Source of the DNA: Chloroflexota bacterium
GTDB lineage: Bacteria > Chloroflexota > Dehalococcoidia > DSTF01 > RBG-16-68-14
Length of the DNA stretch: 63,492 nt
Direction: 5' to 3'
NCBI GenBank assembly: GCA_022562155.1
Contig: JADFPV010000004.1
Coordinates: forward strand, 1 to 63,492
Position numbers and translations under genes: made by a program. Positions 49,338 through 56,865 of this stretch are shown in pieces; the stretch's first letter is position 1, and each line of letters begins with the position of its first letter. The notes under the pieces were generated by a model. That model was not told the origin of the DNA and made no database searches. It saw only the letters and a list, made by a program, of their open reading frames with translations.

Positions 49338-50296
49338 CCGTCTCCCTGCGTCTCCCAGTCATCGATAGCGGTAAGTATCTCTTCCCGTAGCTCCTCTGCC
49401 GCGAACGAGCCATCGATGGAGTTCTTCGCCAACCGCGCGTACCCTACGCGATCGAGTTTGAGGAGCCGGCCGGCGATCTCGTACTCGCCAACAAGGTCGC
49501 AATCGAAAAATCCCGGATCGTCAGTGTTCACCGAGACGCTGATTCCAGCGTCCCACAACGCGCGTATCGGGTGGTCATCGAGTGAAGACACAACGCCGAG
49601 CAGCAGATTCGACGTCGGGCAGACGGCCAGCGGGATCTGGCGCTCGGCCAGCTCTCGAACAAGCGTGGGGTCTTCCACAGACCGAACGCCGTGCTGAATA
49701 CGGTCGGGGTCCAGAGCATCAAGCGTGTCCCACACCGATTCAGGGCCCGCGTTCTCGCCCGCGTGCGGCGCGGAGTGAAGACCTCGCCTCTTCGCTTCGG
49801 CAAAGACGTCCGCAAATGGCTTCGACGGGAAACCCTCCTCTGGTCCACCCAAGCCAATCGCAACGAGGCCGGGTACGGCGCGTGTGGCGTCCAGCGCCTC
49901 CAGCTTCACCTCGGCCGGCATCACACGCCCGAGTCCGAGCACAAGGCGAAGGATAACATCGCGCTCTTGAGACGCGGCTTCGGCAGCTTCGAAGAAAGAT
50001 TCGAGCGTTCTCGGGCCGAGCGCGGGAGAGATCTCCAGCTCAGCGTAGCGAACGCCAGCGTGGGCGGCGTCTTCGGCGTACTCCCGCACCATGCGGGCGT
50101 AGTCGCCGGGCCGGATCATGACGCGCGTTGCCAGCATGTACGTTTCGACGAAGCCATTGGGGTCGGTGAACTCACGCGAAATGCTCACGCCTTCCCGCGC
50201 ACTAAACTCCTCCAGCGTCGCGGGCCTAACTGTGCCTTCGAGGTGGACGTGTACTTCGGCCTTCGGTAGGGCGGCGAGATCGCTCGGCGCCCTCAT
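49334..50296 (-). CDS. add: adenosine deaminase
   Basis: LPKAEVHVHLEGTVRP metal motif, HAGE, SVNTDDP. Confidence 0.85.
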   Translation of the reverse strand: MRAPSDLAALPKAEVHVHLEGTVRPATLEEFSAREGVSISREFTDPNGFVETYMLATRVMIRPGDYARMVREYAEDAAHAGVRYAELEISPALGPRTLESFFEAAEAASQERDVILRLVLGLGRVMPAEVKLEALDATRAVPGLVAIGLGGPEEGFPSKPFADVFAEAKRRGLHSAPHAGENAGPESVWDTLDALDPDRIQHGVRSVEDPTLVRELAERQIPLAVCPTSNLLLGVVSSLDDHPIRALWDAGISVSVNTDDPGFFDCDLVGEYEIAGRLLKLDRVGYARLAKNSIDGSFAAEELREEILTAIDDWETQGDG

Positions 50297-50413
50297 CGCC
50301 TAGCCGCGCGGCAGCCTTAGGCCTCTCGTGGCGATGATGCCGCGCTGGACCTCGCTCGTGCCGGCGGCGATCGTGCTGGAGACGGCCTGCAGGTAGCCAC
50401 GCTCCAGCCTGCC
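50290..50413. repeat. 124-nt duplication copy A (add start + acyl-CoA dehydrogenase 3' end relic)
   Basis: 109/124 identical to 52313-52436. Confidence 0.9.
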
Positions 50414-52207
50414 GAGTTCGGTCGCCTCTTCGACGGCAATTGTGTCTGAAGACCGAACCGTCATAGTCGGCCGGTCCGTGGAGCCTCGGATGACACCACG
50501 GACGCAGATGTTCTCTCCGAGATAAGACTGCTCCGGTTCCGGGAAATATGCCCGCCTGTGCGGTGGGATGATGACACGGAACTTGCCTCGGTCGCCGACA
50601 TGGAGGATTGACGTCTGGCCGACCCGGTCAACGCGTGTCACAGATCCGCTGACGATCGCGAGGTCGTCCACGTGCTGGCCTGCCTGCTGCCACGGCACCG
50701 CCTGCGGACACGGAGCGGCCACCGCCACGCTCCAGAACCTCCCGGCATCGTACGCAGGACCGGCAGTTCCCGTGTATTTTCCTCCCCGCCACTCGATGAC
50801 GCAGTCGCCCGGTGAAAGAAGGTCAAATCCCTCACCCCCAATGTGAACGACCTTCGTCTCGGGTCGGACAAGCTGGATTAGTCCTAGAACCAGGTGGGAC
50901 GGGTCTACGAACGGAAGCGCCAGCACAAAGACGGTTTCACCGTTCTCCAGCATGGGGCAATCGTCTTCAAGCGCGTCTTTGATTCCTTCCGTCTGAGCAG
51001 CCTGCCCTGACATCCAGCGCTGAACTTCTGTGTCACGCGGGAGCAGCGCGGCGCCAAGGCCTGCGAGCACCACGACGATAGCGGCGGCTCCGGCGATGAC
51101 GTGCCGTACTGACAGCCACTGGATTAACGTCACGGTCAGAGCGGCTATGAAGCCCGCCCAAGGAATGCTTGCCAGGTACACCCATCGAGGGAAGAACGCG
51201 CCTGCGAGGAAGCTGGAGGGAACCAGCGCGATGAGCGCGCAGGCAAAGAGAGCGGGCATGGCCCATTGGCGGCGGAGGAGCGCAACGGTCGCCGCCAAGC
51301 TGAACGTCGCCAGGGCAGCCCATTGGGCCCCTCCGACCCATGAGCCATAGTCGGTGGTGGAGAGGGGGAGGCTAAGCCAACGCAACCGTTCGCCTAGCCT
51401 AACTGCTGCCTGCCAATCTAGTTGATACTGCGTCGACGAGCCAATCTGCGATTGCGAGAGCTGGAGAGCGCCGTAGGCCGCGGCCAGAGCCACGAATGGG
51501 AGCACCGCCCGGGCGAAAGCAACGACCTTCGGTCTATCGCTGGGCAGCTTGACGGCCAGCCCAAGCACGACCAGGAGCACTGGAAGAGAGGCGCTTGCTT
51601 CCATCGTGAACAGCGCAGCCGTGAACGTGACGGTTGCGAGGACCAACGTCCTCCGGCCAGCCGCTCCTTCCCAGAACCTCAAGAACAACACCAACGTGGT
51701 GACGCTCAAGAGAGCGGCCATGAGCGATCCCATGGTGGATATCCAGACCACGCCGGTGCCGTAGGCGGGCGCAACGGCGAACAGCAGGCCGGCAAGGATA
51801 CCCGCAGCGAGGGAGCGCGTGACTCGTCGGATGAGCATGACCGTGGCCGCCGCCGTGGCAGCGTGCAGCACCAGATTGGCCAGGTGGTAGGGAAAGGCGT
51901 CCAGCGAGAACAGCCGGTACATGGAAAAGAAGTAGAAGTCGGCGAGAGGGCGCCAATACGGCGTAGGGCCGCGAGGGAACTCAAACGCGCTCTTGATAGA
52001 TTCGAGAACGTGCGGGTTCTTCGCCGCCCCCAGCCAGACGATGTCGTCCCGGAAAAACCACTGGTCAAGGAAGCGATAGTAGACGAGCGAGGCGGCGGCG
52101 ACGGTCAACAGGAGGCCGGCAACGAGGACCAGCCGCTGGCCAGCCGGCGTGTCATACGAGCGCCGTAGCCCGCCCCAGACTTCAGTGAGCCGGGGCTTGC
52201 AAATCAT
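50300..52207 (-). CDS. GT-C-fold membrane glycosyltransferase-like protein with chimeric C-terminus
   Basis: ~11 TM helices, FRDDIVWLG and PYHLANLVLH (PMT_2/ArnT-like). The last ~37 codons duplicate the acyl-CoA dehydrogenase C-terminus. Confidence 0.6.
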   Translation of the reverse strand: MICKPRLTEVWGGLRRSYDTPAGQRLVLVAGLLLTVAAASLVYYRFLDQWFFRDDIVWLGAAKNPHVLESIKSAFEFPRGPTPYWRPLADFYFFSMYRLFSLDAFPYHLANLVLHAATAAATVMLIRRVTRSLAAGILAGLLFAVAPAYGTGVVWISTMGSLMAALLSVTTLVLFLRFWEGAAGRRTLVLATVTFTAALFTMEASASLPVLLVVLGLAVKLPSDRPKVVAFARAVLPFVALAAAYGALQLSQSQIGSSTQYQLDWQAAVRLGERLRWLSLPLSTTDYGSWVGGAQWAALATFSLAATVALLRRQWAMPALFACALIALVPSSFLAGAFFPRWVYLASIPWAGFIAALTVTLIQWLSVRHVIAGAAAIVVVLAGLGAALLPRDTEVQRWMSGQAAQTEGIKDALEDDCPMLENGETVFVLALPFVDPSHLVLGLIQLVRPETKVVHIGGEGFDLLSPGDCVIEWRGGKYTGTAGPAYDAGRFWSVAVAAPCPQAVPWQQAGQHVDDLAIVSGSVTRVDRVGQTSILHVGDRGKFRVIIPPHRRAYFPEPEQSYLGENICVRGVIRGSTDRPTMTVRSSDTIAVEEATELGRLERGYLQAVSSTIAAGTSEVQRGIIATRGLRLPRG

Positions 52208-52312
52208 AATGTGGCGCCTTGCCTCTGGTGCACCTGATGTGCTGACTGTGAAGAAGGGTTCGTGCCAGGCAGGTAAGCCAAGTGAACGGCACGGGGTTGC
52301 TCCGTAGCGGCA

Positions 52313-52436
52313 CCCTCATCGCCTAGCCGCGCGGCAGGCCCAAGCCCCTAGTCGCAATGATGCCGCGCTGCACTTCGCTCGTGCCCGCGGCGATTGTGCT
52401 GGAGACGGCCTGCAGGTAGGAGCGCTCCAGCCTGCC
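52313..52436. repeat. 124-nt duplication copy B (authentic ACAD 3' end + relic add start)
   Basis: See copy A. Offset 2023 nt. Confidence 0.9.
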
Positions 52437-53489
52437 CTTCATCGGCGCATACTTCGACCCTGGCTCGAGACCCCCATACATCCCAAGCAATTGGATGCCG
52501 GTGAGGGCGAGCCGCTGCCCGAATTCAGAACCGAACAGCTTACTGATCGAGGCCTCGTAATTGGGGATGATGCCCTTCGACTGCATCCAGGGTATGCGGT
52601 AGGCGATGTTTGTGCCAGCAGCCAGCTCCACCGCGCGATCCGCGAGCCTGTTGCGGACCGTCGGGTTGCGGCGTACCGTCTCGTCGGGATGTTCCTGCAC
52701 GAACTCGACAAGCCGCTCAAGCGTCCGCCTGCCGCCCGCGTAGGCCTGAATGCCGGAGCGCTCGAAGTCGAGTGCGACCGCGACCTGATACCAGCCACGG
52801 TTCAGCTCGCCCACAAGGTTCTCCTTGGGAACGCGCACGTTGTCGAAGAAGACTTCGCTGAAGCCGGACTGGCCTGCCATATTGATCAGCGGCCGCATGG
52901 TGATGCCGGGTGTGTCCATCTTGACCGCAAGCGTGCTGATCCCTTTGTGCTTCGGCGCCTCCGGGTCCGTCCTAGCGGCGAGCCAGCCCCAGTGGGACCG
53001 CTGGGCCCCAGACGTCCAGATCTTTTGGCCATTGATCACGAAGTCGTCGCCGTCCTGGACCGCGCGGGTCTGGAGCGAGGCCAGGTCGGACCCGGCCTCC
53101 GGCTCCGAGTAAAGCGTGCACCAAACGTCTTGGCCGGATGTGATCCCCGGCAGGAAGCGCTGCTTTTGCTCTTCTGTGCCGTAGAGCATGACGGCCGGCC
53201 CAACCCAGGCGACGCCCATGCTGTAGGCGCCCGGCGCGCCCTGATACGACATCTCTTCGTTGTAGATCAACTGCTGCATATGCGGAGCGTTCAGCCCGCC
53301 GTACTCCTGCGGCCACGCCATGGCGAGCCACTTACGTTCAGCGAGTTTCGATGTGATGCGTTGGCCGATGTCTGTAGCGCCCTCTTCGCCATACCCAGTG
53401 CCATCCCAGTCCTTTGGCAGCTCCTGGCGCAGGAACTCGCGTACCTCTTCTCGAAACTTTTCCTGCTCTTCGGAGAATCTGAAATCCAT
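52323..53489 (-). CDS. acyl-CoA dehydrogenase
   Basis: 388 aa. MDFRFSEEQE..., typical ACAD domains, C-terminal AAGTSEVQRGIIA. Confidence 0.9.
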   Translation of the reverse strand: MDFRFSEEQEKFREEVREFLRQELPKDWDGTGYGEEGATDIGQRITSKLAERKWLAMAWPQEYGGLNAPHMQQLIYNEEMSYQGAPGAYSMGVAWVGPAVMLYGTEEQKQRFLPGITSGQDVWCTLYSEPEAGSDLASLQTRAVQDGDDFVINGQKIWTSGAQRSHWGWLAARTDPEAPKHKGISTLAVKMDTPGITMRPLINMAGQSGFSEVFFDNVRVPKENLVGELNRGWYQVAVALDFERSGIQAYAGGRRTLERLVEFVQEHPDETVRRNPTVRNRLADRAVELAAGTNIAYRIPWMQSKGIIPNYEASISKLFGSEFGQRLALTGIQLLGMYGGLEPGSKYAPMKGRLERSYLQAVSSTIAAGTSEVQRGIIATRGLGLPRG

Positions 53490-53498
53490 CGCTACCTC

Positions 53499-54119
53499 CT
53501 AGCCAGACCTAGTCGCCGCGCCCATGCGTTTCGCGACGTTCTGGAACACTGCATAGTCTTGCGCGCCGACGATCGGCAACCGCCGCTCCCCGTCGTCGAA
53601 GATGAACGTCGGCGTTCCCGTGATGCCCGAGCTACGCGCCTCCTCCGTCGTCTCGTTGACGAACGAGACGTAGCGGCCCGAGGCCAGCGCCTCTTCGAGG
53701 CCGGATACGTCGAGACCAATCGATGAGCCTAGCTCGGCCAGCACGGCGAGATCGCCAAGGTCGCGGCCCTCGCCGAAGTACGCCCGAAAGAGGGCGTGGT
53801 GATAAGCATCGAACAGTCCTTGTTCACGAGCGAACTCGGCGGCCTCCAGCGACCTGTGCGCATTGGGGATGTGGCCTCCCGGTGCGTACGGCAGGCCTGC
53901 CTCCTCGGCAAACTGCCGGATCGGGCTGACGGAGCCTTCCGGGCGTGGGCGCCGCTCGCCGCGGTCGCGGCCCTCGGGCGGAATCTCAGGATGCAGCTCG
54001 AATGGCAGCCAGGTCACCTCGATGTCGAACTCCAGTTGAAGCTGGTCGGCCCGCACGAGGCCGATATAGCACCACGGTCAGATGTAGTCTGAATATATCG
54101 TGAGGTTCATCTGGCTCAT
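53499..54119 (-). CDS. DsbA/FrnE-like dithiol oxidoreductase with in-frame TGA at the first active-site Cys (Sec candidate or pseudogene)
   Basis: Frame reads MSQMNLTIYSDYI-TGA-PWCYIGLV..., with TGA at 54078-54080. The ATG lies 1 nt after the upstream SDR stop. The rest of the DsbA_FrnE-like sequence is intact. Confidence 0.55.
54046..54064 (-). other. candidate bacterial SECIS-like hairpin
   Basis: UCGGCC-ucgugcg-GGCCGA begins 13 nt after the UGA. Confidence 0.3.
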
Positions 54120-54120
54120 A

Positions 54121-54897
54121 TCACGCGTTTCTAACGGTTAACCCACCATCAACAGGCAATGCAACCCCGGTAATATACTGGGCTGCCGGCAATACCAGGC
54201 TGAGCGTGCCATGGGCGACTTCCTCGGGCTCTCCATAGCGCCTGAGGGCAACTCGCCTTTTCGCATATGTTTCCTTGTGTTCTTCCGGTATTCCTGCAGT
54301 CATACCAGTACGAATTGGTCCAGGACAAATGCAGTTGACGGTGATTCCCTCCGACCCCAACTCAACGGCAAGCGACCGAGTCAACCCAATGACGCCCGTC
54401 TTAGCGGCCGAATACGGACTCCCATACTTTGTGGCGCCCAGTGCCTCCGTTGATGCGATATTGACGATTCGACCATGAGGAGACTTCCGGATGAAGGGCA
54501 GCGCGGCCCGGATCGTTAGTACGTGCGCGGTGAGCAGCACAGCATGGGTCTTCTCCCAGGCCGTGAGATAGCCATCTCCATCTACAGGTGATGGCATGGA
54601 TATCCCCGCATTGTTCACAAGAATGTCGATCTGACCGAAGTGCTCGCCAATCTCTCTGATGATGGGGGCAATGGCATCACCATCGGACAGATCCAGGGTC
54701 CAGCCCTTCGCATCGTATCCCGCATCGGTCATCTCCTTGACGACATCTTGCAAAGGTTCCTCATTGATATCAATCAAGGCAACGCGTGCGCCTTCATCGC
54801 CGAACAGGTGCGCAGTGGCGCGGCCCATACCACTCGCCGCGCCAGTAACTATCGCGACTTCTCCTCTAATGGAACGGCTTAGCGATGTCAGTGGCAT
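54121..54897 (-). CDS. SDR-family oxidoreductase
   Basis: VAIVTGAASGMGRA, NNAG, YSAAK. ATG 54897 after AAGGAG. Confidence 0.85.
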   Translation of the reverse strand: MPLTSLSRSIRGEVAIVTGAASGMGRATAHLFGDEGARVALIDINEEPLQDVVKEMTDAGYDAKGWTLDLSDGDAIAPIIREIGEHFGQIDILVNNAGISMPSPVDGDGYLTAWEKTHAVLLTAHVLTIRAALPFIRKSPHGRIVNIASTEALGATKYGSPYSAAKTGVIGLTRSLAVELGSEGITVNCICPGPIRTGMTAGIPEEHKETYAKRRVALRRYGEPEEVAHGTLSLVLPAAQYITGVALPVDGGLTVRNA

Positions 54898-54947
54898 AGT
54901 TAGTCTCCTTCCTTCCAAGCAGAAGCTACCTGATCTCGCGTGGTTCC

Positions 54948-56090
54948 TCAGCGCATCAGTCTGAAACACTTCCGCAGTTCGTCCACGAACAGGTCCGGCT
55001 GCTCGAACGCCGCGAAGTGCCCGCCCTTGTCCAGCTCGTTCCAGTAGACGATGTTGCGATAATGCTGCTCCGCCCAAGAGCGTGGCATGGGCACGATCTC
55101 CTTCGGGAAGATGCTGCACCCGGTCGGAAGCTCGACCCCACCATCTCCACCGGTCAGCCGGCCGAAGCTCTCCCAGTAGAGACGGGCCGACGACGCGCCA
55201 GAAGCGGTCAGCCAATAGATCATCACGTTGTCCAGCAGTTCATCGCGCGTCAAGGCGTTCTCTGGATGGCCCTGGCAATCCGTCCAGGCCCAGAACTTCT
55301 CAAGAATCCACGCGGCCTGGCCGATGGGTGAATCCACAAGCCCGTAACCTAGGGTCTGTGGCCGCGTCGACTGCTGCTTGGAGTAGCCGGAGTCCCAGTC
55401 CTGGTAGTGCTTGCCACCCGCAAGCGCAGCCTGTTCGCGCTCTGTCGGATTTGCCAGAGATTTCTTGGTAGGGCGAGCGGTCGGCATGTTGACGTGAATG
55501 CCCGCGCAGTGGCCCAGGTTCTGCAACCCGATCTCGGTAGTGACACCGGCACCCCAATCGCCGCCTTGCGCCACATATCGCTCATAGCCCAGGCGAGTCA
55601 TGAGCGTATCCCAGCTCGCGGCGATTTTCTGCACGCCCCAACCGGGCTCGGTCGGCTTGCCGGAGAACCCGTACCCAGGCAGCGACGGAGCGACGACGTG
55701 GAACGCGTCGCTTGCATCGCCGCCGTGCGACGTAGGGTCCGTCAGCGGCTCGATAACCTTGTGGAACTCCACGATCGAACCCGGCCAGCCGTGCGTGATG
55801 ATCAGCGGTAGGGCTTCGGCGTGTTTGCTGCGCGCGTGTAGGAAGTGGATGTCCAGACTCTCGATCTCGGTCTTGAACTGAGGCCACCTATTGAGCCTCT
55901 CCTCCATCGCGCGATAGTCGTAGTCATTCGCCCAGTAGGCACAGATCTCCTGCATGTAGGCGAGCGGAATACCCTGCGACCAGTCGTCCGGCGTCTCCGC
56001 GTCGGGCCAGCGCGTCGCCCCGAGGCGGCGCTTGAGGTCATCGACTGCCGCATCGTCAATCTCGACAAGGAACTCTCGTACGTCGCTCAC
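54948..56090 (-). CDS. epoxide hydrolase (microsomal EH-like, alpha/beta fold)
   Basis: EH N-terminal domain (RWPD...WSQGIPL), HGWPGS. GTG 56090 after GGAGGAGG. Confidence 0.85.
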   Translation of the reverse strand: MSDVREFLVEIDDAAVDDLKRRLGATRWPDAETPDDWSQGIPLAYMQEICAYWANDYDYRAMEERLNRWPQFKTEIESLDIHFLHARSKHAEALPLIITHGWPGSIVEFHKVIEPLTDPTSHGGDASDAFHVVAPSLPGYGFSGKPTEPGWGVQKIAASWDTLMTRLGYERYVAQGGDWGAGVTTEIGLQNLGHCAGIHVNMPTARPTKKSLANPTEREQAALAGGKHYQDWDSGYSKQQSTRPQTLGYGLVDSPIGQAAWILEKFWAWTDCQGHPENALTRDELLDNVMIYWLTASGASSARLYWESFGRLTGGDGGVELPTGCSIFPKEIVPMPRSWAEQHYRNIVYWNELDKGGHFAAFEQPDLFVDELRKCFRLMR

Positions 56091-56103
56091 TTCAGTCCTC
56101 CTC

Positions 56104-56865
56104 CTAGACGCCGCTGCCGCCGTCAATGCGAAGGATCGCGCCCGTTGTGAAGGACGAAGCGTCCGTCGCGAAATAAAGCGCCGCACCGACGATCTCCTCC
56201 GGCTCGCCCCCGCGTCGCATATCGAAGTGCTGTGCCCGCTGATTGAACACCTCCATGGGCCATGCCTTCGAGATGTCGGTAAGAAACGGACCGGGCATGA
56301 TGCAGTTGACGCGCACCTTCGGCCCGTACGCATGAGCGAATGCCTCAGTCATCGCGTTCAGCGCGGCTTTGGCCGGGGCATATGGGATCACGTCTGCGCT
56401 GGGGCGAATCGAAGCAGTGCTGCTCACGTTGATGATCGAGCCGCCCTCGCCGTCGGCCATCCGCTGGCCTATCAGCGCGGTTATTCGGAACGGTCCTTTG
56501 AGGTTGACGGCCAAAACCTTGTCGTACAGCTCTTCCGTCACGTCCACAGGTCGCGGATAGGTGGGCGACATGCCCGCGTTGTTTACGAGCACGTCGACCT
56601 GCCCAAAGCGCTCGTACGCCGCCTCAGCTAGCCCTTCCACCTGATCCCAATGACCTACGTGGCAGGCTGTCGCGAGGGCGCTCCGTCCTGTCTTCGCCTC
56701 GACTTCTCTCGCAAGCTCCTCACAAGCATCCAGCTTGCGGCTGGCGATGACGACATCGGCCCCAGCTCTCGCGAAACCGAGTACCATCTGTTTCCCAAGC
56801 CCCCGGCTACCGCCGGTCACGAGTGCGACCTTTCCAAGGAGAGGTTGGTCATCCGAATCAGGCAT
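56104..56865 (-). CDS. SDR-family oxidoreductase (3-oxoacyl-ACP reductase-like)
   Basis: VALVTGGSRGLGK, NNAG, YAPAK. Confidence 0.9.
   Translation of the reverse strand: MPDSDDQPLLGKVALVTGGSRGLGKQMVLGFARAGADVVIASRKLDACEELAREVEAKTGRSALATACHVGHWDQVEGLAEAAYERFGQVDVLVNNAGMSPTYPRPVDVTEELYDKVLAVNLKGPFRITALIGQRMADGEGGSIINVSSTASIRPSADVIPYAPAKAALNAMTEAFAHAYGPKVRVNCIMPGPFLTDISKAWPMEVFNQRAQHFDMRRGGEPEEIVGAALYFATDASSFTTGAILRIDGGSGV

Follow-up and report, generated by a model that had tools for sequence, protein, structure and literature searches.

Selenoproteins related to the thiol-disulfide oxidoreductase DsbA have been known for two decades. A DsbA-like protein (COG2761) with a UxxC motif, where U denotes selenocysteine (Sec), entered the list of selenoprotein families in 2005 with the Sargasso Sea data analysed by Zhang, Fomenko & Gladyshev (PMC1088965), and DsbA-like selenoproteins were reported from genomes in 2006 (PMC1794560). 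According to the survey of Peng et al. from 2016, 45 such genes are distributed over 41 genomes (PMC5029168), and in the family lists of two reviews from 2022 and 2026 the DsbA-like family is entered as PF01323 with UxxC (PMC9312934, PMC13188914). In BSepDB, metagenome-assembled genomes (MAGs) of marine Dehalococcoidia belong to the bacterial genomes richest in selenoproteins (PMC13326102). In Deinococcus radiodurans, cadmium, radiation and desiccation induce FrnE, a disulfide reductase/isomerase of the cytoplasm that uses Cys22 as nucleophile and regenerates its active site by a C-terminal CxxxxC tail, a tail that is missing in FrnE from S. roseofulvus and D. maricopensis (PMC8945050). Here, we describe a gene at positions 53499-54119 (minus strand) of a stretch of 63,492 nucleotides from a Chloroflexota bacterium of the class Dehalococcoidia (contig JADFPV010000004.1 of assembly GCA_022562155.1), which is called the window throughout. 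This gene very probably encodes an intact, cytoplasmic FrnE-type DsbA of about 205 residues in which Sec takes the exposed, nucleophilic first place of the CxxC motif (U14-P-W-C17).

The gene is complete and forms a single open frame with a match to the Pfam family DSBA (PF01323). On the minus strand, to which all positions within this gene refer, the frame runs from ATG(54119) through SQMNLTIYSDYI to TGA(54080-54078), continues with PWCYIGLV... and remains open up to the TAG at 53501-53499. The letters read ATG(54119) AGC CAG ATG(54110) AAC CTC ACG ATA TAT TCA GAC TAC ATC TGA(54080-54078) and go on with CCG TGG TGC TAT ATC GGC CTC GTG CGG GCC GAC. With UGA and TAG counted, this amounts to 206 codons from the ATG at 54119 and 203 codons from the ATG at 54110. 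The listed open reading frame (ORF) covers only 53499-54056, starts with GTG at 54056 and encodes 185 residues without a CxxC motif. The first-pass annotation, made from the letters and their ORFs, had already noticed that this shorter product lacks the active site of a thioredoxin fold, that 63 nt more of the same frame restore the N-terminus of DsbA_FrnE and that TGA replaces the first active-site Cys codon in an otherwise intact frame; all of its coordinates were correct. If the U is read as C, the read-through protein matches the DSBA profile with E=4e-34 (residues 6-194 on profile positions 2-188 of 191), and since the product spans nearly the full profile, the 5' extension is the genuine DsbA N-terminus, carrying the active site as well as strand β1 and the SDY motif. 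The predicted Sec codon (54078-54080), residue 14 and the first position of U-P-W-C, aligns with Cys22 of FrnE and is TGA in many homologues as well. The resolving residue Cys17 (TGC, 54069-54071) is invariant in the alignment and is the only Cys of the protein, whose C-terminus reads ...KRMGAATRSG with no Cys beyond C17. Invariant are also Thr169 and Pro170 (53610-53615), which form the conserved (cis-)Pro loop facing the active site of the thioredoxin fold.

The evolutionary extent of the unusual codon was followed in 80 homologous loci (L001-L080) of GTDB species representatives, in which the codon was read from the DNA. The codon homologous to the window TGA is TGA in 44 of the 80 loci and TGC or TGT in 36 of them, which is the outcome of the orthologue alignment that the first-pass annotation had recommended; the Sec-type sequence set used below comprises 45 and the Cys-type set 36 members, and because one Dormiibacterota clade dominates the Sec-type sample, fewer independent observations stand behind such counts than the figures suggest. 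TGA forms occur in Chloroflexota, in many Dormiibacterota, in one Symbiobacteriaceae MAG and in MAGs labelled Verrucomicrobiia and Actinomycetes, and they extend to relatives at about 40% identity; the best-matching loci are Chloroflexi/Dehalococcoidia MAGs. A protein search returned dozens of metagenomic relatives of 55-90% identity that were called as proteins of about 185 residues at 89-90% query coverage, and thus truncated at the same point as the window ORF; full-length relatives (205-239 residues), which have CPWC, are not more than 70% identical. A crude neighbour-joining tree, which is only indicative, would imply repeated exchange between Sec and Cys, because Sec forms fall into at least four clades and the window clade is nested among Cys-type Dehalococcoidia.

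Both sides of the TGA behave as coding sequence in these relatives. An in-frame start lies 11-17 codons before the TGA in 45/45 TGA-type genes (TTG in L020 and ATG in all others), and the frame remains open for 177-209 codons after the site. Among the nine codons before the TGA the third position varies most (2.73), followed by the first (1.44) and the second (0.38), a coding-type substitution pattern that points to purifying selection. The two closest relatives with compared DNA, L085 (90% identity) and L086 (83%), have kept the TGA, the frame and an identical downstream hairpin, and neither carries the additional lesions that had been named as a sign of decay in sister strains. The TGA/Cys pairing among the 80 loci, the conserved frame and the coding pattern upstream of the site together argue for a real selenoprotein gene. 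They also bear on the fresh pseudogene, which the first-pass annotation had admitted as alternative and in which a nonsense mutation from TGC/TGT to TGA would have inactivated a Cys-type FrnE gene. One base change is indeed sufficient for such a conversion and gene callers report only the 185-residue remnant, but a TGA that recurs in 44/80 loci across phyla down to about 40% identity, with start and frame intact on both sides, with coding-type substitutions in the codons before it, without further lesions in sister strains and with a covarying hairpin specific to the TGA forms, makes this explanation hardly credible and led to its rejection.

A somewhat different proposal accepts the TGA as a real stop and takes the 185-residue protein from the GTG at 54056 as the product, a DsbA-fold protein that would be redox-inactive, with the 13 upstream codons serving as leader or non-coding sequence. 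It draws on the in-frame GTG after the TGA that gene callers actually use. Against it, the upstream codons encode strand β1 and the SDY motif common to the Cys-type enzymes and are under purifying selection, and no start after the site is conserved, as callers choose differently among the relatives (e.g., P0056 and P0094). Judged from the structural model described below, the product would moreover be devoid of β1 and of the start of helix α1 of the thioredoxin fold. We regard an internal start as highly improbable and return to the selenoprotein as the preferred reading. For the selenoprotein two start codons come into question, ATG 54119-54117 and ATG 54110-54108 (54108..54119). In L085 a TAG stop stands directly before the equivalent of the ATG at 54110, which is thus the sole possible start there, and for this reason the true start of the window gene may be 54110 rather than 54119.

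A sequencing or assembly error at the TGA could be suspected because the window is a metagenome-type assembly and contigs break near this codon. However, the identical TGA is found in L083, an ENA assembly that is 99.9% identical over 7 kb, and in L084, a Logan contig that is 100% identical, and the codon is also TGA in L085, L086, L001 and L002. At least eight metagenome studies of marine sediment, the habitat of the organism, contain the window sequence, and contigs from four of these studies show no alternative base at 54078-54080; close by they differ only in the codon preceding the TGA, by a synonymous change ATC>ATT. The probability left for such an error is practically negligible. As a separate observation, the depth in contigs from the four studies rises about 10-20-fold over some 50 nt (54044-54097, comprising the active-site codons and the hairpin), and many contigs end there or continue into unrelated flanks. 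This segment is near-identical in many genes or organisms of the community and breaks assemblies.

The second line of evidence for the selenoprotein comes from the RNA that follows the UGA. A hairpin of the bacterial selenocysteine insertion sequence (SECIS) type lies within the coding sequence at 54046..54064 (minus strand). It begins 13 nt past the UGA and consists of a 5' arm UCGGCCU (54064-54058), a loop CGUGC (54057-54053) and a 3' arm GGGCCGA (54052-54046), i.e. of 7 bp and a 5-nt loop with -10.8 kcal/mol for 19 nt. The GC-rich hairpin had been noticed at this very distance already in the first-pass annotation, and the minimum free energy (MFE) fold extends its stem to seven pairs, the seventh being a closing U.G pair. 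In exactly the same register a hairpin can be formed in 45/45 Sec-type sequences although the arms differ, with UCGACUC(G)...(C)GAGUCGA in Dormiibacterota, UCGGCC...GGUCGA in Anaerolineae-like sequences and UCGGCGAG...CUCGUCGA in L054. At least six contiguous pairs are present in 44/45 Sec-type sequences; among the Cys-type sequences five of 36 have seven pairs and none has six. In the Sec-type alignment 98.7% of the cells are paired compared with 16-50% in controls with the 3' arm shifted by 1-3 columns. Both sides have changed in three of the seven pairs, and 0/500 shuffles reached the observed covariation score. The change from G-C to A-U at columns 20/32 alters two residues jointly, as Asp20/Val24 then take the place of Gly20/Ala24. 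Over the 19-nt segment the energy averages -9.5 kcal/mol in the Sec-type and -4.3 kcal/mol in the Cys-type set (p=4e-12), and in the nearest Cys-type relative L087 (70% identity, TGT) the hairpin has decayed to -6.5 kcal/mol. Thus, the conservation in orthologues that had been proposed as a check is found in the Sec forms and lost in most Cys forms. The third-position variability per codon in Sec-type genes is about 0.18 in the 11 codons after the site versus 0.42 further downstream; the corresponding values in Cys-type genes are 0.38 and 0.47.

The published model of bacterial SECIS (bSECIS) elements comprises a loop of 3-9 nt, an upper stem of 4-16 bp, a G in the first two loop positions, a distance of 16-37 nt from UGA to loop and an MFE of -7.5 kcal/mol or lower (PMC13188914). 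All four bSECIS criteria hold for the window hairpin, with a loop of 5 nt, a stem of 7 bp, 20 nt between UGA and loop and -10.8 kcal/mol. Its loop has G at position 2 followed by U, an assignment that depends on the U.G closing pair predicted by the MFE fold; G/U in the loop and a spacing in the bacterial range had been noted in the first-pass annotation. Other Sec-type loops (GUC, GGUCA, GGG, AGGAUCG) have a suitable G, too. All four criteria apply to 41/45 Sec-type sequences and to 4/36 Cys-type sequences (Fisher p=7e-14). The Cys-type genes L055, L056, L060 and L062 (Anaerolineae-type) as well as L067 carry a SECIS-like hairpin in the same register 16-35 nt after TGC/TGT, with the forms UCGGCCA-GGGUG-UGGUCGA and UCGGCCU-CGCCC-GGGCCGA, and the group of L055, L056, L060 and L062 is sister to the Sec-type clade of L009, L011 and L020. 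These genes may represent relics of, or precursors to, the use of Sec.

Besides the uneven composition of the Sec-type sample, several observations weigh against a selenoprotein. ARAGORN found no tRNA-Sec in the 63-kb window, in 47 related loci or in 1.27 Mb, and tblastn with SelA, SelB and SelD of Escherichia coli against the window and all loci gave one weak GTPase match only, which belongs to a Cys-type locus. These searches for the Sec machinery cover the 63-kb window and about 1.2 Mb of related flanks and are uninformative rather than negative. The window contains no second gene that would convince as a selenoprotein; searching it for in-frame TGA flanked on both sides by coding-like GC content at the third codon position yielded 59 sites, which are off-frame, natural stops or positions before a start. 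In NCBIfam the protein finds only a far sub-threshold match to another seleno-lipoprotein model, and Rfam gives no match at gathering thresholds over the whole window and mere noise at permissive E-values over 53900-54200. The transcript evidence consists of fragmentary contigs, one of them (181 nt) from a metatranscriptomic library prepared by whole-genome amplification and possibly containing DNA. Finally, the window hairpin taken alone is not unusual for GC-rich DNA (z = -0.40 against shuffled sequence), and because the fold of the single sequence is not significant, the significance of the hairpin derives wholly from the comparative data. With regard to the tRNA search it was further observed that ARAGORN on L001-L080 plus window (1.27 Mb) detected a single tRNA gene, a tRNA-Val in L066, far below expectation; MAG contigs probably break at or miss tRNA and rRNA regions, which limits the search for tRNA-Sec.

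The nature of the inserted residue and of the code has to be considered in this context. In some bacteria tRNA(Sec)-like tRNAs charged with Cys are described, which are rare compared with ordinary Sec decoding, and a UGA recoded to Cys in a SECIS- and SelB-dependent manner is expected to leave the same comparative signature of conserved TGA and SECIS. No such tRNA was seen in the ARAGORN scans of the window and the related loci and the lineage is documented as rich in selenoproteins, so that we assign recoding to Cys a very small probability. Genome-wide reassignment of UGA to sense (genetic code 4 or 25) would be in line with the under-use of TGA as stop (11/51) relative to TAG (30/51) in a sequence of 63% GC. 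Yet TGA ends 11 gene calls including conserved genes of normal length and the gene directly upstream, and there is no other internal TGA in any real coding frame of the window; reassignment deserves next to no credence. The stop usage itself is peculiar, since among the 51 gene calls of the window TAG (30) dominates over TGA (11) and TAA (10), which is unusual for a bacterium with 63% GC. Ordinary insertion of Sec is therefore retained as the reading of the UGA, and the U-P-W-C selenoprotein put forward in the first-pass annotation has been strengthened by the Sec/Cys pairing, the purifying selection upstream, the covarying hairpin and the occurrence of the TGA in independent assemblies.

The closest protein of known structure is FrnE of D. 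radiodurans (5CNW and others), which is the best sequence match in PDB (E=1.3e-22) and in which Cys22 of CPWC aligns with the TGA. For structural comparison the AlphaFold model (pLDDT 89.9) of the Cys-type homologue P0008, 69% identical, stands in for the window protein. In this model the first Cys is located immediately before helix α1 and the invariant Thr-Pro precedes a β strand (residues 196-200). The top structural matches of the model are the FrnE structures 5CO3, 5XWH and 5CNW with TM scores of about 0.7 (best 0.72), and SCO1869, kappa glutathione S-transferases (GSTs), YjbH, DsbM and HCCA isomerases follow at lower ranks. With only 13 residues before U-P-W-C (residues 14-17) there is no room for a signal peptide and the window protein is presumably cytoplasmic. 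By analogy with FrnE, its most likely function would be that of a cytoplasmic thiol-disulfide reductase/isomerase operating with a U14-C17 selenenylsulfide cycle.

How Sec would be inserted with the aid of SelB, how the enzyme would cycle and be recycled and with which gene it would be transcribed are points that we infer, and they can be put together as follows. The UGA at 54080-54078 would be read through instead of serving as stop. In the mRNA the hairpin 54064-54046 with its apical loop CGUGC could act as bacterial SECIS and recruit SelB.GTP.Sec-tRNA(Sec) to the ribosome, whereupon Sec would be inserted at the UGA. The mature enzyme is expected to alternate between two states, one with selenolate and thiol and one with U14 and C17 joined in an intramolecular selenenylsulfide, and in this way might reduce or isomerise disulfides of cytoplasmic substrates as shown for FrnE of D. 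radiodurans. As the window protein is without the C-terminal CxxxxC tail of FrnE, it would need an external reductant for recycling, for example thioredoxin/thioredoxin reductase. The dsbA gene is probably co-transcribed with the acyl-CoA dehydrogenase (ACAD) gene located downstream.

This ACAD gene (52323..53489, minus strand; Pfam Acyl-CoA_dh_N, _M and _1) is the conserved downstream neighbour. Its Shine-Dalgarno sequence GGAGG (53495..53499, minus strand) precedes the ATG at 53489 and overlaps the stop codon of dsbA. The spacing of 9 nt between dsbA and ACAD is the same in L083, L085 and L086, and about 20 loci of Chloroflexota, with DsbA of the Sec type as well as of the Cys type, have ACAD next to the DsbA gene (e.g., L001, L003, L008, L013 and L050). 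ACAD is the probable operon partner. On the upstream side follows a short-chain dehydrogenase (SDR; 54121..54897, minus strand; adh_short; GC 0.53-0.58), whose stop TGA (54123-54121) is separated by one T from the ATG at 54119. The first-pass annotation had seen this distance of 1 nt correctly and had taken it as a hint to operon coupling; the coupling is local to the window genome and the SDR is not conserved as neighbour, being replaced by hemerythrin in L085 and by a dienelactone hydrolase (DLH) in L086, and it is the ACAD downstream that proves to be the conserved partner.

From this neighbourhood one may speculate that the FrnE-type (seleno)oxidoreductase of Chloroflexota is a dedicated partner of ACAD in acyl-CoA/fatty-acid metabolism and not an enzyme of general disulfide repair. 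It could, for example, keep ACAD or the pool of CoA thiols and disulfides reduced, or act on a CoA-linked substrate. We consider this role rather unlikely, but if it were true, repeated switching between Cys and Sec would adjust that step to redox conditions in anoxic sediments.

The surroundings of the gene show some additional peculiarities. A block of SDR, epoxide hydrolase and a second SDR (54121-56865) lies between DLH and dsbA in the window, where GC is 0.53-0.58 at 54000-55000 versus 0.62-0.68 around it. In L086, where the block is absent, about 50 nt separate DLH from the inferred start of dsbA downstream. The block resembles a variable cassette, possibly an acquired one. Within it, the 808 nt at 55901-56708 of the window correspond to 100 nt (1145-1244) in the otherwise 99.9% identical L083, and this shortening takes away most of the second SDR (56104-56865) and, from the epoxide hydrolase (54948-56333), the N-terminal EHN domain; either the strains differ in structure here or one of the two contigs was misassembled. 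On the other side, a direct repeat of 129 nt (88% identical) of the ACAD 3' end is located at 50285-50413 and 52308-52436 and flanks an insertion of about 2 kb between the ACAD and adenosine deaminase genes, which are only 4 nt apart in L001. The inserted ORF (50300-52207, minus strand) encodes a membrane-protein-like product of 635 residues without Pfam match that ends in frame with the copy of the ACAD C-terminus (...YLQAVSSTIAAGTSEVQRGIIATRGL.LPRG).

Family, motif and mechanism of the described protein are already known, and the understanding of selenoproteins is unchanged by this finding. What is shown here is that the family is abundant in MAGs of Chloroflexota and Dormiibacterota and is systematically called there as an ORF of about 185 residues. 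Such calls without active site mean that the selenoproteomes of both phyla are under-counted and that an intact redox enzyme is taken for a remnant. The gene also offers an example of dual coding, as a segment of 19 nt serves both as codons for part of helix α1 and as the SECIS stem.

In comparison with known systems, the hairpin is like the SECIS elements of the E. coli fdhF/fdnG/fdoG type in being an in-frame stem-loop immediately 3' of the UGA. It is unlike E. coli fdhF, whose SECIS has a bulged U and a lower stem contacting the UGA, since the window element has neither of them. With FrnE of D. radiodurans (DR_0659; 5CNW, 5CO3, 5CP1 and 5XWH) the window protein shares the C/U-P-W-C motif at the start of helix α1, the lack of a signal peptide, the helical insertion domain and the Thr-Pro loop; the two differ in that FrnE has Cys22 at the position of the predicted Sec and possesses the CxxxxC tail, whereas the tail and any Cys besides C17 are missing from the window protein. 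Of the features that delimit the FrnE subfamily (cytoplasmic oxidoreductases of the cd03024 type), a DsbA fold closest to FrnE and the N-terminal CP(W/F)C-type site are thus present and the tail is absent, and the latter is not strictly defining because FrnE from S. roseofulvus and D. maricopensis also lacks it. Kappa-class GSTs, HCCA isomerases, DsbM and YjbH have the same overall fold (Foldseek E 1e-9 to 1e-7 with the P0008 model). However, kappa GSTs and HCCA isomerases work with glutathione and with Ser or single-Cys chemistry instead of a CxxC/UxxC dithiol; all these groups rank below FrnE, and nothing places the window protein there. The closest correspondence is with the family named DsbA-like protein form 1. 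Shared are the Pfam domain, the UxxC motif with Sec in the first position, widespread Cys homologues and, right after the TGA, a stem-loop of the SECIS type whose small apical loop contains G, and the gene combines a DSBA domain spanning the TGA, a Sec/Cys pair at UxxC and a SECIS-like stem-loop, as in that family. The members named in the passages of the literature that deal with form 1 are Sargasso Sea sequences, deltaproteobacteria and Firmicutes, and in comparison with what these passages describe nothing categorical differs; the gene belongs to an established selenoprotein family.

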